From a virus (taxonomy: Duplodnaviria; Heunggongvirae; Uroviricota; Caudoviricetes): 7,830 nt of DNA. Shown piece after piece: positions 1 to 7,830 of the stretch; the first letter of the stretch is position 1; each line of letters begins with the position of its first letter. The stretch lies in the IMG/VR virus record IMGVR_UViG_2648501485_000012; one strand, given 5' to 3'. Below the pieces are notes generated by a model that made no database searches, was not told the origin of the DNA, and was given only the letters and a program-made list of their open reading frames with translations. Made by a program: the position numbers and the translations under genes.

Positions 1-1603
1 CGCCAGAGAAAGACATCGTTACTGAATTTAAAGTACCAATATCTTTCGGCGTTAATGTTATATCCGCAGTCAGTGCTTTTCCGTTAACTTTTCGGTTAGA
101 TGGCACCCTGCTATTCGCATTGTCATTGGCTGCTTTAACTGCTTTTGGCGTTGCGGCCAGCGATTCACTGGTGCTATCAACAGCACTGCTAAGTTTCACA
201 ACACCTTTAGTTGTAAGGCTTGCGTCTTCCATCGCAACTGCACCGGCAATCTCTTCAGCACGATCAGCAGCAGCTTCCGCACGGGTCGCAGCGGATTCAG
301 CAGCAGTTTTGCTCTGAGATGCTGCCGTCGCACTGCCTGCCGCCTCTGTTGCTTTCGTGGATGCCGTCGCGGCGCTGCCCTTCGCTGCTGACGCCTGTCT
401 GGTCGCCTCATCTTTTGAAGCAGACGCAGATGATGCCGATGACGCCGCCGAACTGGCGGACGATGCGGCAGCCGTTTTTGAGGATTCTGCGCTGGTTTCC
501 GACGCTTTCGCGTTCGTTTCGGATGTCTTCGCTGCGGAAGCAGACCTCGCTGCTGCGCTGGCCTGTACAGCGGCTTCGCCAGCATTCGTTGTGGCTGTTG
601 AAGCAGACGATGCAGCACTTTCTGCCGACTTTCCGGCAGCGGTGGCACTGGCTGAGGCCTGCCCGGCACTTGTTGACGCGGCACTGGCAGATGATGCAGC
701 CGCTGTTTTTGAGCCTGCCGCAGCTGAGGCACTCTGTCCCGCTGCCGTTTCAGAAGACCTGGCGTTCGTCTCGGACGTCTTTGCCGCCTTCGCGGAATTT
801 CCTGCCGCTGTTGCCGAGGAAGCTGCGCTACTGGCGCTCGAGGATGCGTTCGTTTCTGATGATTTTGCCGCCTCTTTTGAAGCCGACGCATCCCGGGCTG
901 AGGTGGCAGCTTCTGACGCTTTCGTGGTCGCGGTGGATGCAGAAGTGGCTGCTGATTGTTGTGACGCTGCAGCATTCGTTTCTGACGTTTTCGCGGCACT
1001 GGCACTGGTAGCTGCCGCGCTTTTTGAGGACTCTGCAGCGGCAGCACTTTTTGATGCTTCAGTGGCCTTTGCTGATGCCGTTCCTGCGCTGGAAGACGCT
1101 GACTGAGCCGACGACGCGGCCTGTCCGGCTGACGTGCTGGCTGCGCGTGCTGAGCCTGCAGCATCAGTCGCATGGGTTGCCGCCTCACTGGCAGATGTGC
1201 TGGCATCACTGGCTGACTTCTTCGCGGCTGCCGTGTTCTGTGCCACCGCGGACGCGTTACGCGCCACCTCTTCCACCATCAGTTCAAAACGGCGCAGTGC
1301 CTCCGGACGGGCATCATCCTCCGTCATGGCACCGAGAAAATCATTCAGCGTACCGGGTCGGGAATCTTCATACACGGTGATGGTCCCGGCATGTGACGGC
1401 GGGAATCCTTCCACCAACAGAATAACGCTGTACTGACCGTACTCAACGTCCATGCTGTAACGCCCGGCTTCATCCGGATTTTCTGAGGCCAGCGTGTTCA
1501 CCACCACCGCGGTGCTGTTACGTTTTGCTTTCAGCTGGATTGTGCAGTTCTGTACCGGTTTTCCTGTGCCGTCTTTCAGTACACCTGAAATCTTTACTGC
1601 CAT
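1..1603 (-). CDS. stf: Side tail fibre protein Stf, N-terminal 534 codons; gene runs off the window start (3' partial)
   Basis: I translated the minus strand by hand from the ATG at 1603..1601: MAVKISGVLKDGTGKPVQNCTIQLKAKRNSTAVVVNTLASENPDEAGRYSMDVEYGQYSVILLVEGFPPSHAGTITVYEDSRPGTLNDFLGAMTEDDARPEALRRFELMVEEVARNAS..., which matches my recollection of the lambda Stf (orf-401) N-terminus. The frame stays open with no stop down to position 1 and ends ...NANSRVPSNRKVNGKALTADITLTPKDIGTLNSVTMSFSG. The ORF track omits it because it has no in-window stop. A GGGG-rich Shine-Dalgarno-like stretch (gtggggtgaat) precedes the ATG. Confidence 0.88.
   Translation of the reverse strand, partial: MAVKISGVLKDGTGKPVQNCTIQLKAKRNSTAVVVNTLASENPDEAGRYSMDVEYGQYSVILLVEGFPPSHAGTITVYEDSRPGTLNDFLGAMTEDDARPEALRRFELMVEEVARNASAVAQNTAAAKKSASDASTSASEAATHATDAAGSARAASTSAGQAASSAQSASSSAGTASAKATEASKSAAAAESSKSAAATSASAAKTSETNAAASQQSAATSASTATTKASEAATSARDASASKEAAKSSETNASSSASSAASSATAAGNSAKAAKTSETNARSSETAAGQSASAAAGSKTAAASSASAASTSAGQASASATAAGKSAESAASSASTATTNAGEAAVQASAAARSASAAKTSETNAKASETSAESSKTAAASSASSAASSASSASASKDEATRQASAAKGSAATASTKATEAAGSATAASQSKTAAESAATRAEAAADRAEEIAGAVAMEDASLTTKGVVKLSSAVDSTSESLAATPKAVKAANDNANSRVPSNRKVNGKALTADITLTPKDIGTLNSVTMSFSG
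239..1258 (-). repeat. Low-complexity Ala/Ser/Thr-rich tract inside stf with degenerate repeats of the motif A-A-K-T/S-S-E-T-N-A
   Basis: Hand translation gives ...SAAATSASAAKTSETNAAAS..., ...KEAAKSSETNASSSA..., ...KAAKTSETNARSSETAAG..., ...ASAAKTSETNAKASETSAES.... At DNA level, related 20-25 nt segments (gcgttcgtttcKgaYgtctt...) recur near plus-strand positions 511, 764, 846 and 973. The tract explains the long spurious ORFs in other frames (357..1106 +, 220..1011 +, 196..1209 -). Confidence 0.7.
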
Positions 1604-1613
1604 ATTCACCCCA

Positions 1614-1641
1614 CAAAAAAGCCCGCCTGAACAGGCGGGCT
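1614..1641 (-). terminator. Putative rho-independent terminator downstream of lom, just upstream of the stf start
   Basis: On the minus strand: 8-bp GC-rich stem (gcccgcct / aggcgggc; plus-strand 1621-1628 and 1633-1640) with a 4-nt loop, followed directly by six T (complement of the A-run at 1615-1620). It lies between the lom stop (1668) and the stf ATG (1603). Confidence 0.6.
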
Positions 1642-1667: not shown

Positions 1668-2267
1668 TCAGAACTTATAACCGACACCCACGATGAAACC
1701 GTCAGTGCGCCAGTCACCACTGCCGGAGCCTTCATAAGCAATATCAATGGCCACGGATTCGGTCGGGTTAAACTGCACGCCAGCCCCCCACGCCAGAGAC
1801 GTGTTGCTGTGGCGACCGTCATCACTTCCGGTCAGCACATCGTGCGTTTTCCCCTTGTTGTCAGTTACGCGGAGATAATCCCCGGAGAAAGTCGACACAC
1901 GGCTGTAAGCCACACCCGCCATCGCATACGCGCTGAACCATTCATTCACGCGCACAGACGGCCCCGCCATCACGCTGAACCAGCGGTTACGCACGGAATC
2001 TTCATGCCAGCGGGTATCGCTGTAACGGGTAAGCTGGCGATTCTTGTCTCCTGCATAGCTGAATGACGTCACCAGCCCCAGTGTGTCCGTAAACTCATAA
2101 CGGTATTTCACGTTAATCCCGTTAAGATCATCGCTGCCGGGAACGTTCGTCGAGGCATGAAGATACCCCGCGCTCAGCGTGGACTGATGTTCAGATGCCC
2201 ATGCAGGCGCACCGGATACGGCCAGACAAATGGCTGCGGACAAAATGGCGGCATAAAGTTTACGCAT
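1668..2267 (-). CDS. lom: Outer membrane protein Lom (Ail/Lom/PagC/Rck family 8-stranded beta-barrel), a prophage moron
   Basis: 199-aa ORF. N-terminal signal peptide [24 protein letters not shown] with an AxA cleavage site. C-terminal ...GVGYKF ends in an aromatic residue, as typical for OMP beta-barrels. The sequence matches my recollection of lambda Lom. SD gagagg (plus-strand 2273-2278) sits 5 nt upstream of the ATG. Confidence 0.92.
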
Positions 2268-2291: not shown

Positions 2292-2315
2292 AAAAAAGGC
2301 ACCATTTCTGGTGCC
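2292..2315 (-). terminator. Putative rho-independent terminator between the J stop and the lom start
   Basis: On the minus strand: 7-bp stem ggcacca / tggtgcc with loop gaaa, followed directly by six T (complement of the A-run at 2292-2297). It sits 22 nt after the J stop codon. Confidence 0.6.
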
Positions 2316-2336
2316 CTTATATGGGTTATAACAATT

Positions 2337-5300
2337 TCAACGAATACTGATGCCGGAAGCGGCTTTTTTGGTCACAATCACCGTACAGTCGGTGATATTG
2401 CCTGCCCCCTGATTGCCTTTCTGGAAAATCTTAAACTCCAGAGTGACGCTACCACCACCACTAGGCATATCAATAACTGCACTGTAACTACCGGGAATGG
2501 CCCCTTTAGTTTCTCTGGATGCGATTAATACACCGTTTTTGCGAACTTCAAAACCATAACCCGTGTATCTTGTACCTCCCGGGTTATTACCACTTCCCGG
2601 ATCGCTATACGCTATTCCGTTAAAGATAATGGGCGGAATAATAATCTGGCGGTCAAAGTTATGATCATCGCTGATGGTGACTGTAACCGTACCGTTTGGT
2701 GTTTCCGTGTTACCCCACGTACCGACTTTTTTCGGGAAGGCTTTTGATACAGCTTTAACGAAATCTCCTCTGACCTGGGTCGCCTCCAGCATGCCCTTAA
2801 TCGTACAGTTCTGGTTAATCGTGACATTGTTGAGCGTTCCTGAGTTCGCATTCACACTGCCACTGATATCCGCATTTTTAGCGGTCAGCTTTCCGTCCGG
2901 AGTCAGGGAAAATGCCGGTGGATTTCCACCGCTGGTAATGGTGGGGGCCGTCAGGCGTTTCAGGAACACGTCGTTCATGAATATCTGATCGCCCTGACCA
3001 ACAAACATCGGTTTTGTGTTGCCATTCGCAGGATTAACCATCGCAATCCTGTCCGCCGCCAGCAGCACCTGACTCTGCATGCCGTCAGGGGTGTTCTCAA
3101 TACCGGCACCAATACCCGCAATATAAAGGCGTCCGTCCTGCATCTGCTGCAGCTTCACAGCCCACATGCTGTTCAGGTTATTATTTGTATCAACCTGAAC
3201 TTTCTGTATCTGCTGGATCGCTGCACTCTGGTCTTCCAGTTTCTTATTGACGGTCTGTGTGATTTCATTGCTGACATCCGTAATGGACGTCCTGATTTCA
3301 GCCAGGTCAGGCGCAAGCTGACCGTTATCAATCTGCGTCCACAGCTCCTGAGCCAGATGGGTTTTCCCTATCTCGCCTTTGAAAAAATCCAGATAGCCGG
3401 ATGCATCATCACTCGGCTGACCAACAGCCTCCACGAATGCCGATTTGCCAACGGTGTTCACACTGCGAACGTAAAAATAATAATCATAGCCCGGCCTGAT
3501 ATTGATACTGGCGGCTATCCAGTACAGCCCCGTGCCAAGGTAGCGGGCTGTGGTTTCAACCTGCCTGATATCGGTAATCCGCTTTTCCGAGAACCAGAAC
3601 TCAAACTGTACCGTCGGGTCATAAACGGCAAGATGCGGCGTGGCGGTTATCTGAAAATAGCCCGGCGTCAGCTCAATCCTCGACGGTGCTGCCGGTGCGG
3701 CAATCCGGAACGATACCGACGCCGGATCGCCCTGCTGCCCCCACGCATTTACCGCCCGGACTGTCAGCCTGTAGTTCCCCAGCGCCAGTTGCGTGAAGCG
3801 GTATGTGGTTTCCGTCGTCCGGGCCGTGCTGACCAGCCGCTCACTGCCGTCGTCCGCTGTTACGGTCAGACGGAGCAGGAAGCTCACGCCCTTCACCACC
3901 TTCGGTGTGTCCCAGCGCGCCAGCACCTGATATTCCCCGCTGTCTGCAGTGACTTCTGCGGTCAGGTGCTGCACCGCTGGCGGCGTGACACCGTTCACCG
4001 TGCCACTCTGTTCGCCGTCAAAGTGCGCCCCGTTATCCACGATGGCCTCTTTTTCCGGCACATGCTGCACGGCGGTGATGGCATACGTACCGTCATCGTT
4101 CTCACGGATACTCACACAGCGGAACAGGCGCTGGCGCAGCGTCGGCAGCTTCAGCCCCCACACGCTGTATTCGGCAACGCCGTCAGGAACACGGCTCACT
4201 TTCACCTTCACGCCGTCGGTGACGGACTGAACCTCCACGCTGACCGGACTCCCCTGCCCGTCAACCAGGCTTATCAGCGTGGTGCCGGAAGATGGCAGCG
4301 TGATTTCACGGTCGAGCGTCAGCGTCCGGGTCTGGCTGTTCACCGCCAGCACGCGCCCGCCGGTGCTGATACCGGCATAGTCATCATCGCAGATTTCAAT
4401 GACATCGCCCGGCACATGGCGAAGCCCTTCTGCGCCCACGCTGAAGTCCACGGTCTGCGTTTCCAGCAGTTCTGTTTTAATCAGCCACAGCCCGGCGCGG
4501 TGTGCCTGCCCCCGGCTGGTACAGCCAAAAGCATCCATCTTCGTGACGTTACGACCGTAACGGGCAATGGCCTGCGTGTCCTCCACAAGCTCTGTCGCCG
4601 TCTCCCAGCCGTTATTCGGGTCAATCCAGTTCACCTCAACGGCATTATGGCGGTCCTTCAGGGCGCTGAAGCTGTAGCGGAACGGCGCACCATCATCCGG
4701 CATCACCACATTACTGCGGTTATAGGTCCACACCTTATCCGACGGTCGGTCCTGCACGAACGTCAGCGTCTGCCCGTTCCATACCGGCATACAGCGCATC
4801 GCAGAGCAGAAATCACTGAGCACATCCCACGCCTTGCGCTGTGTGGTCAGGTACGCATTACAGGTGATGCGCGGCTCCGTGCCGCCAAAACCGTCCGGCA
4901 CCGACTGATCGCAATACTGGCCGATGACATACAGCGCCCATTTATCCACATCCGCCGCACCAAGACGTTTCCCCATGCCGTAGCGCGGATGGGTCAGCAT
5001 ATCCCACAGACACCAGGCCATGTTGTTGCTGTATGCTGGCTTAAACGTTCCGTCCCAGATACCGCTGTATTGCCGCGTCTGCGGGTTATAGTTCGACGGC
5101 ACCTGCAGAATGCGCCCGCGCAGATGATAATTACGGCTCACCTGCTGGCTGCCGAACTGCTCCGAATCCACCTGCACGCCGACCAGTGCCGTGTTCGGGT
5201 AGCCCTGTTTCACATCGATGATTTCGGTGTATGACGACCAGAGCGTTTTGTTCTGCAGCTGGTCTGTGGTGCTGTCCGGCGTCATCCTGCGCATCCGGAT

Positions 5301-5834
5301 ATTGAACGGGCGCGGCGGCAGGTTACCCACCACCACCGAGGCCAGATACTGCGAGGTGGTTTTGCCCTTAATGGTGATGTCTTTTTCCGTCACCCAGCCA
5401 CCATTACGCTGGATCTGAACCAGCAGGCGGACTTCCGACGGATTCCTGTCCCCCTTTGAGGTGGTTTCCACCAGTGCCTGCACACCGAAGGTAAAACGCA
5501 GACGGTCAATGTTTGCCGACGTGATGGTCCGGGTGATCGGCGTGTCGTATTTCACTTCCGTACCCAGCACCGTCTCGGAGCCGGAGGATTCAAATCCCTC
5601 CGGCGGTGTCTGCTCCTGCTCACCGGCCCGGAACACCACCGTGACACCGGAGATATTGGTATTCCCCTCACTGTCCAGCACCGGCGTACTGTTCAGCAGC
5701 ACGCTTTTTAATCCATCCACCGGACCTTCAATCGGCCCTTCGCTGATGGCATCGATCACACTCAGCAACTGCGTGGACTTCAGGTTGTCCTTCGCTTCGC
5801 GCGGAGTATGCCCCTTACTGCTGCCTTTACCCAT
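2337..5834 (-). CDS. J: Tail tip / central tail fibre host-specificity protein J
   Basis: 1165-aa ORF. The N-terminal roughly 800 aa ([54 protein letters not shown]...) closely match my recollection of lambda gpJ (1132 aa). SD GGAG (plus-strand 5843-5846) is 8 nt upstream of the ATG. The C-terminal and a central segment appear to differ from lambda (see findings). Confidence 0.96.
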
Positions 5835-5894: not shown

Positions 5895-6566
5895 TCAGCG
5901 ACCAATCACCACAACCTGACCACCATCCCCTTCGTCTGCCGTGCTGATCTCCTGAGAAACCACCCGCGACCCCACGCGCATTTCACCGTACAGAACGGGC
6001 AGAACATTGCCCTGGGCAACCATGTTATCCAGTGAGGAGAAATAGGTGTTCTGTTTGCCGTTATCTGTACTTGCTGCCGTGGGCGTCCTGGCTTTCGGTG
6101 CCAGCATCTGCGCCACACCACCAAGTACCATACTGGCACCGAGAGAAAACAGGATACCGGTCATACCACCGGCCCCAATGGCTGCCCCCCATGCTGTAAG
6201 GGTGGCTCCGGCGGTAAAGAATGATCCGGCAATGGCGGCTGCTCCTAGGACAATCTGGAATACACCACCTGACTTGGCCCCGGCGACTCTGGGAACAATA
6301 TGAATCACAGCGCCATCAGGCAGAGTCTCATGTAACTGCGCCGTTAATCCGGACGTGCTGACATCCTGCCCGGCAATCCGTACCTGATACCAGCCGTCGC
6401 TCAGTTTCTGACGAAACGCCGGGAGCTGTGTGGCCAGCGCCCGAATGGCTTCAGCCCCCGTTTTCACACGAAGGTCGATGCGGCGGCCAAATCGTTGTAA
6501 ATCCCCGTAAAGGCAGATGCGCACCATGCCCGGTGACGCCAGAGGGAGTGTGTGCGTCGCTGCCAT
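5895..6566 (-). CDS. I: Tail tip assembly protein I
   Basis: 223-aa ORF MAATHTLPLASPGMVRICLYGDLQRFGRRIDLRVKTGAEAIRALATQLPAFRQKL..., matching my recollection of lambda gpI (223 aa). It starts inside the 3' end of K in a different frame. SD-like gagagagg lies about 11 nt upstream. Confidence 0.92.
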   Translation of the reverse strand: MAATHTLPLASPGMVRICLYGDLQRFGRRIDLRVKTGAEAIRALATQLPAFRQKLSDGWYQVRIAGQDVSTSGLTAQLHETLPDGAVIHIVPRVAGAKSGGVFQIVLGAAAIAGSFFTAGATLTAWGAAIGAGGMTGILFSLGASMVLGGVAQMLAPKARTPTAASTDNGKQNTYFSSLDNMVAQGNVLPVLYGEMRVGSRVVSQEISTADEGDGGQVVVIGR

Positions 6567-7207
6567 TTGTCGGTATACCTCTCTCGTTTGCTCAGTTGTT
6601 CAGGAATATGGTGCAGCAGCTCGCCATCACCACAGTAAATGGCGGCATGATTCGGCACCGATGAACCAAAACAGCACAGCAGCACATCGCCCGGTTGTGC
6701 TGATGACAACGGCACCTGATACAGCCCTGTGGCCTCCAGATTATCCAGATAGAGATTCTGACCGTGACGCCACCAGTCATCCCCGCGATGAAAATCCGGC
6801 ATCTCAATCCCCGCCAGATGATAAGCATCCCGGAACAGCGTGTAACAGTCCGTCACCCCGTGCTCAAAGCGCCGCCCGGTAAGATGCGGCACACAGCGGA
6901 ACTTATGAATCGCCCCCCGGCAGACCAGCCACCACGGCAAATCACTCTGCACCTGCAGCCGCCGGTCGGCCTCACTCAGCCAGGGCAGACCACCGGGGTG
7001 GCTGTGGACCAGCGCCACAATCTCACCCTGCATTTCTGCCTGCAGCCAGTCTTCCGGCGACATACGGAAATACGCCTCCGGCTCACCGGAGATATTCACG
7101 CAGGGGAAATATCTTTCCTCCTCCGGCGTGCTTACCACGAAGCCGCACGACTCCGCTGGCGCACATCGCCGGGCGTGCGCCAGAATCGCTGATTCTGTCT
7201 CTGTCAT
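6464..7207 (-). CDS. K: Tail tip assembly protein K (N-terminal JAB/MPN JAMM-motif domain plus C-terminal NlpC/P60 domain); the classical lambda start corresponds to the internal ATG at 7063
   Basis: 247-aa ORF starting 5 nt after the L stop. JAMM motif HSHPGGLPWLSEAD (HxHx7Sx2D) at residues 68-81, nt 6965-7006. NlpC/P60-like catalytic Cys context GVTDCYTLF, with downstream His residues. The internal Met49 (nt 7063) gives the 199-aa form annotated in lambda and has a GGAGG at 7075-7079, 11 nt upstream. Confidence 0.88.
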   Translation of the reverse strand: MTETESAILAHARRCAPAESCGFVVSTPEEERYFPCVNISGEPEAYFRMSPEDWLQAEMQGEIVALVHSHPGGLPWLSEADRRLQVQSDLPWWLVCRGAIHKFRCVPHLTGRRFEHGVTDCYTLFRDAYHLAGIEMPDFHRGDDWWRHGQNLYLDNLEATGLYQVPLSSAQPGDVLLCCFGSSVPNHAAIYCGDGELLHHIPEQLSKRERYTDKWQRRTHSLWRHRAWCASAFTGIYNDLAAASTFV

Positions 7208-7212
7208 GGGAT

Positions 7213-7830
7213 TTACTGCGAAAGTTTGTTAATGGAAAGGAAGCCGCCAAAGTTGCCGACGTTATTGCGAAACTTACAGCCGCTCAGGCATTTGCTGCAT
7301 TTATCCTTCGTGATATCGGACGTTGGCTGGTCATATTCATCCGCGACCGCCGGACCGTGATAACCGCACTCACCGCCGCGATAGGTCCAGGTGCAGGTGT
7401 TGGCCAGCATGATACGTCCCGGAAAAACAGCGCCATCCGTTTCCGTCGGCGTGGACAGTACAAAGGAGGCACTCACCGCGCTCAGTTCGCTGCACTGCTC
7501 AATGCGCCAGCGGCTGATCACCTCCTGCTCCGGATCGGCGTCACTGTTTCCGTTGACGAAGTTCACCGCATCCAGAAAACGGGCGTAAACCTTACGCCGG
7601 ACCACCGTTCCGCCGACCAGACTCTGCAGATCTTCCGCCATCCCGGTGACCATACCGTACAGGTTAGAAACCGTCAGCGTGGGGCGCGTACTGGTGCCTT
7701 TGCCATTCAGTTCAAAACCACTCCCCTGAATGGGATACGGCTGATACTGTCGCCCCTGCCAGGTGACCGGCTCACCTTTTTCGTTCTGCTCATTACAGAA
7801 AAAATAACGTTCTCCACCGACCTCTGTCAG
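7213..7830 (-). CDS. L: Minor tail protein L (tail tip); C-terminal 205 codons plus stop, N-terminus beyond the window end
   Basis: Hand translation from 7830 downward gives LTEVGGERYFFCNEQNEKGEPVTWQGRQYQPYPIQGSGFELNGKGTSTRPTLTVSNLYGM, then VTGMAEDLQSLVGG...SINKLSQ and a TAA stop. This matches my recollection of lambda gpL. The frame is open to the window edge, so the 7213..7653 ORF in the track is an internal-Met truncation. Confidence 0.92.
   Translation of the reverse strand: MTEVGGERYFFCNEQNEKGEPVTWQGRQYQPYPIQGSGFELNGKGTSTRPTLTVSNLYGMVTGMAEDLQSLVGGTVVRRKVYARFLDAVNFVNGNSDADPEQEVISRWRIEQCSELSAVSASFVLSTPTETDGAVFPGRIMLANTCTWTYRGGECGYHGPAVADEYDQPTSDITKDKCSKCLSGCKFRNNVGNFGGFLSINKLSQ

Follow-up and report, generated by a model that had tools for sequence, protein, structure and literature searches.

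The tip attachment protein J of lambdoid phages ends in a receptor-binding domain, and the locus described here raises the question of whether this domain has been exchanged in an otherwise lambda-like J and, if so, which outer-membrane porin the resulting central tail fibre would bind. The window, i.e. the whole stretch of DNA that was analysed, is an entire short contig of 7830 bases (JHSJ01000190.1, assembly GCA_001265915.1). A preliminary description, made from the letters alone, had proposed a module swap at the C-terminus of J with a possibly altered receptor specificity.

Gene content of the window

The real genes are all encoded on the minus strand, in the order of the lambda tail-tip operon, L-K-I-J-lom-stf, as read from the list of open reading frames and the Pfam matches. 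J stands after L-K-I and before lom and stf, as in lambda and 434, and the window is the tail-tip block of a lambdoid E. coli prophage. Its features, including the parts into which J is divided below, are as follows.

7830..7213, minus strand: L, 3' part
7207..6464, minus strand: K, with JAB and NlpC/P60 domains
6566..5895, minus strand: I
5834..2337, minus strand: J (tip attachment / central tail fibre protein), 1165 aa, intact open reading frame including the stop codon
3429..5834, minus strand: lambda-like N-terminal part of J (~aa 1-802; hub domains, two FNIII/Ig domains)
~2977..3428, minus strand: middle mosaic block of J (~aa 806-960; alpha-helical shaft and upper central straight fibre)
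2832..2976, minus strand: conserved junction of J (~aa 961-1001; lower central straight fibre)
2337..2831, minus strand: 434-type C-terminal receptor-binding module of J (aa 1002-1165 and the stop codon)
2343..2750, minus strand: Ig_GpJ_C match (PF12421), the Ig-like receptor-binding domain proper (aa 1029-1164), 88.8 bits against a cut-off of 26.2
2295..2318, minus strand: terminator-like GC hairpin with T-run, directly 3' of J; a 434 terminator is annotated at the matching position
2267..1668, minus strand: lom (Ail/Lom outer-membrane beta-barrel protein), 199 aa, PF06316 with E = 9e-121; next gene 3' of J, as it is in lambda and 434
1620-1641, minus strand: terminator-like GC hairpin with T-run, directly 3' of lom; a 434 terminator is annotated at the matching position
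1603..2, minus strand: stf (side tail fibre), N-terminal 534 aa, PF08400 (phage_tail_N) with E = 2e-71; cut by the contig end

The presence of one hairpin after J and another after lom suggests for lom a unit of its own with separate termination (a moron). Downstream of it, the contig ends in stf just past the conserved 'KGVVKLSSAVDSTSESLAATPKAV' region. Because the end falls inside stf, the receptor-binding C-terminus of the side fibre and the tfa chaperone gene are absent from the window, and the specificity of the side fibre cannot be read from it. The public gene call places a 249-aa open reading frame without a Pfam match on the plus strand at window 357-1106; as it runs antisense within the Ala/Ser/Thr-rich repeat region of stf, it is probably spurious, the real gene there being stf. 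At the other end of the operon, K (6464-7207, minus strand) encodes 247 aa with an N-terminal JAB/MPN and a C-terminal NlpC/P60 domain, a length that fits the longer start of the 434 annotation and not the 199-aa RefSeq annotation of lambda, and its 3' end is overlapped by the open reading frame of I. When the whole window was compared with complete E. coli genomes, most were found to have a prophage match, the best reaching about 97% identity from end to end, and at least 80% of the window was covered by a match in 3369 of the 5426 genomes.

Mosaic composition of J

The J protein of the window contains the full gpJ domain set (FNIII-A_GpJ, Phage-tail_3, Ig_J, Ig_J_second, Phage_Tail_Tip and Ig_GpJ_C), and all six Pfam families exceed their cut-offs and succeed one another as in lambda. 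It aligns with lambda gpJ from end to end at 82% identity, and the identity rises to 91% overall for J of phage 434 and to 98% over the full length for J of phi458. By these matches the protein can be placed in the lambda-type tip attachment protein (gpJ) family, and the 98% identity of its structural part to lambda gpJ leads us to infer that it would assemble into a trimer as the central fibre of the tail tip. It might be argued that such a gene is the decaying remnant of a cryptic prophage, whose receptor specificity has no current function, for many lambdoid prophages of E. coli are defective and the contig, only 7.8 kb long, ends inside stf. However, the open reading frames of J, lom, I and K are full-length and intact with complete sets of Pfam domains, and the closest of the three J proteins just compared, that of phi458, belongs to an inducible phage, which makes a remnant without function unlikely.

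The similarity to lambda gpJ is distributed very unevenly along the protein. Residues 1-805 are identical to lambda gpJ (NC_001416) at 789 of 805 positions (98%), in agreement with the near identity that the preliminary description had stated for the N-terminal 800 or so residues, and at the downstream end of this part the DNA of window 3429-3836 matches lambda at 389 of 408 positions. A small cluster of substitutions (G769, R780, Y783 and V789) is private to the J of the window when it is compared with lambda, 434 and phi458; it lies at window 3465-3530 on the minus strand (aa ~769-789), in the second Ig/FNIII domain and just upstream of the shaft block.

This block, approximately residues 806-960, is a second divergent region, which had been missed before: the earlier division of J into a lambda-like N-terminal part and a foreign C-terminus was correct for both ends and overlooked what lies between them. 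Relative to lambda and 434 it contains an insertion of 84 nt (28 aa), and its DNA is identical to that of lambda at 237 of 368 positions, with 84 gap positions, as against 445 of 452 for phi458. The same pattern is found in the protein, of which 70 of 127 residues are identical in lambda, 71 of 127 in 434 and all 155 of 155 in phi458. In lambda, the alpha-helical shaft comprises residues 809-861 and flips on receptor binding (PMC11101478); given this position, the middle block would encode a longer shaft together with the upper part of the beta-prism fibre.

Between the middle block and the receptor-binding domain, the DNA returns to near identity with all three phages. The junction at window 2832-2976 is identical to lambda at 137 of 145 positions (94.5%), to 434 at 136 and to phi458 at 141, and its residues 961-1001 are the same as those of lambda throughout (41/41). 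It is plausible that homologous exchange takes place in this conserved stretch, which would make it a recombination site upstream of the receptor-binding domain. Taken together, the alignments describe J as a mosaic of three parts, namely 805 lambda-like N-terminal residues, a shaft block of the type found in phi458, cdtI and Stx phages, and a 434-type receptor-binding domain.

Class and fold of the receptor-binding module

Directly downstream of the junction the similarity to lambda collapses. DNA identity steps from 94.5% (window 2832-2976) to 54% (window 2337-2831; 252/468 identical, 27 gap positions), which places an abrupt break at about 2831, and the region flagged in the preliminary description therefore begins on a real breakpoint. 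The peptide quoted there (...ASGISIR) is the true C-terminus of J (open reading frame 5834..2337, minus strand), and the last 160 or so residues are, as had been claimed, only distantly lambda-like: in residues 1002-1165 (window 2337-2830), 64 of 153 aligned positions are identical to lambda gpJ, with 11 gapped. At 42%, and not above 90%, pairwise identity to lambda, that claim stands; the high identity to lambda gpJ ~974-1132 that marks a lambda-class LamB-binding domain was not found in the module. On the other hand, the module is nearly the same as the C-terminus of J of phage 434 (OL657226), with which it shares 159 of 164 residues (97%) and 478 of 495 nucleotides (96.6%). The five differences, written as window residue, position and 434 residue, are N1047D, S1077D, I1136V, Q1138H and G1143R. 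[quoted passage not shown]

When the C-termini of related phage J proteins were ordered by identity to the module (tblastn, phage records), 74 records were at least 90% identical and 169 less than 60%, with no record in the band from 60 to 90%; lambda (38%) and the OmpC-using phi330 (44%) are in the lower group. On sequence criteria, the module belongs to a discrete 434 class that stands apart from the other J receptor-binding domains. The sharp DNA breakpoint together with this bimodal distribution indicates a recombinational module swap, as proposed in the preliminary description, instead of gradual drift. In principle, the C-terminus could have diverged from that of lambda in place, by point mutation or diversifying selection and without any exchange, since the two domains are homologous along their whole length, are 42% identical and agree in Pfam family and fold. 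Such a history is nevertheless extremely improbable and was rejected: a few bases suffice for the identity to lambda to drop from 94.5% to 54%, the band between 60 and 90% is empty, and copies of this module with 92-97% DNA identity follow different upstream blocks, i.e. the short shaft in 434 and the long shaft in phi458.

PF12421, which gave the Ig_GpJ_C match, carries the title 'Tip attachment protein J, C-terminal receptor binding domain', and a search of the PDB sequences with the last 250 residues returned end-to-end matches to lambda gpJ (8IYK, 8XCJ) and to 'A8 gpJ 713' (9WCA) with E values of 1e-72 to 1e-81. An AlphaFold2 model of the last 165 residues, calculated for a monomer of the receptor-binding domain from a shallow alignment of 12 sequences, is all-beta from residue 25 onwards and has a mean pLDDT of 77 (moderate confidence); the homologue search had yielded mainly gene fragments, among them several chimeric or frameshifted calls, and these were removed before modelling. 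The four best matches of this model in Foldseek (PDB), 9wcb, 8xck, 8xcj and 9wca, with E values of about 1e-12 and TM scores of about 0.7, are all gpJ receptor-binding domains (9wcb is A8 gpJ bound to OmpC; 8xck and 8xcj are lambda in the closed and the LamB-bound state), while the next matches reach only 1e-4. The domain thus has a fold in common with the lambda receptor-binding domain and a different specificity class.

Predicted receptor and triggering of the tail tip

Since the module is 97% identical to that of 434 J, the porin bound by this J is very probably OmpC and not LamB, as would be expected of a domain of the 434 allele. The use of OmpC by 434 was reportedly first described by Hantke in 1978. 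OmpC is the receptor of phage 434, and lambda turns from LamB to OmpC when it is given the fibre gene of 434 (PMC3509688, PMC11101478). In the sequenced lambda h434 imm21 hybrid, the changeover of J from lambda to 434 origin falls between residues 681 and 752, and the rest of the protein is that of 434; this hybrid also has lom, stf and tfa of 434, and from it alone the effects of J and of Stf cannot be told apart. Natural prophage variants that were swapped into the C-terminal portion of lambda gpJ only retargeted the particles from LamB to OmpC, and their delivery was tested with an unrelated, P2-type side fibre (PMC11338833). The OmpC-retargeting variants of that study belong to receptor-binding-domain classes other than 434, and the 434-type motifs of the window domain were not found in its text-form supplementary files. 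In the searched literature, no receptor experiments were found on phi458, mEp332, PhiR34_1, Kati, IdasGreatGrand or mEp460, and 434-type J is not covered by the BASEL completion paper or by a 2026 receptor-prediction preprint.

A 434-type domain might still differ from that of 434 in its receptor, in the subset of OmpC variants that it accepts or in the use of an extra porin, as a consequence of the five substitutions, the shaft block or both. All five differences lie inside the receptor-binding domain, and small changes can matter in this protein family: the A8 and 1A2 chimeras of gpJ distinguish among natural variants of OmpC (PMC11338833), and a handful of point mutations in J can extend the receptor use of lambda, e.g. 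to OmpF, by the account that PMC11101478 gives of its references 30-33. If this were the case, the phage would use a different subset of OmpC or an added porin, and its host range would not be predicted by the label 'OmpC-type'. However, the domain is 97% identical to that of 434, and its residues recur in the most populous natural clusters and in the 99.4%-identical phages ASU11, Stx2_EH2201 and mEp460_ev081, so that the allele of the window gives no sign of being unusual. We therefore consider a departure from the specificity of 434 quite unlikely and retain OmpC as the predicted receptor.

How binding would be transmitted to the tail can be pictured from lambda. Cryo-EM has shown that the three C-terminal Ig-like domains of the lambda J trimer enter the extracellular opening of the LamB trimer with four distal loops. 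This is followed by a widening of the base of the domains, a twist of the beta-prism, a flip of the helical shaft and the opening of the hub (PMC11101478). By homology, the Ig-like tip domains of the trimeric central fibre formed by the J of the window, three in number, would reach with their distal loops into the extracellular mouth of a porin trimer, and this binding would trigger a rearrangement of fibre, shaft and hub by which the tail tip is opened. The trigger mechanism, extrapolated here from the lambda structures, is thus expected to be the same as in lambda.

Prevalence, significance and comparison with known systems

The 434-type module is common. At a nucleotide identity of at least 90%, 2113 of 5426 complete E. 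coli genomes (~39%) contain its DNA, as do 74 phage records, among them cdtI, phi458, mEp460 and phage 2851; many phages converting to Stx1, Stx2a, Stx2c and Stx2d are among the carriers. The same architecture of J is found in phi458 (OP434518), cdtI, ev243, mEp332, several PhiR phages, Kati and some Stx2 phages. Among the complete RefSeq E. coli genomes, none matches the module DNA above 98.0%. The 48-nt stretch that holds the I1136/Q1138/G1143 codons has one exact match in a collection with one genome per species, at positions 6334-6381 of the E. coli SCPM-O-B-8794 sequence JAATUR010000020.1 (L006).

The reading as a module swap with an altered receptor specificity is thus supported; the preliminary description did not recognise that the incoming module is the known one of phage 434 (159/164). 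It is the long-known 434 host-range module on a common mosaic allele of J, already known and without a new specificity, and the case is one of textbook lambdoid mosaicism, the exchange of tail fibres having been known since the lambda h434 hybrids. For annotation, it follows that the label of this prophage's central fibre should be 434-type, with predicted OmpC binding, instead of the LamB-binding lambda-type, a distinction that is useful for predicting the host range of prophages and for choosing J modules in engineered lambda particles. Beyond correct annotation it has little consequence, and the 434-type J module in this prophage opens no new question.

Among the known systems, lambda gpJ (NP_040600; PDB 8IYK, 8XCK and, with LamB, 8XCJ) provides the structural reference. 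The J of the window resembles it in family, in domain order, in 98% identity over residues 1-805 and in the Ig-like receptor-binding fold (Foldseek E = 1e-12, TM 0.70), and presumably in its trigger mechanism; it differs in that the two receptor-binding domains are only 42% identical, with indels, in that lambda binds LamB, and in that the lambda shaft is 28 aa shorter. The A8 gpJ chimera (9WCA; 9WCB with OmpC) and J of phi330 likewise carry homologous Ig-like domains on a lambda-type J and show that a swap of the C-terminus alone retargets the particle. Both bind OmpC, although they represent other domain classes, with about 43-44% identity to the domain of the window. J of phi458 also has 1165 aa, with 98% identity over the full length, an identical long-shaft block (155/155) and a 434-type domain, and the J of the window is distinguished from it by scattered substitutions only, the receptor-binding domains being identical at 155 of 164 positions. 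Finally, J of 434 (OL657226, UMO75286.1), the OmpC-dependent 'h434' host-range allele, shares 97% of the last 164 aa and 98% of the N-terminal 805 aa, and is likewise followed by lom and then stf. Unlike the J of the window, that of 434 has the short shaft of the lambda type, whereas residues 806-960 of the window protein include 28 extra residues and are identical to 434 at 71 of 127 positions; the five substitutions in the receptor-binding domain are the other difference between this J and the allele whose receptor it is predicted to share.
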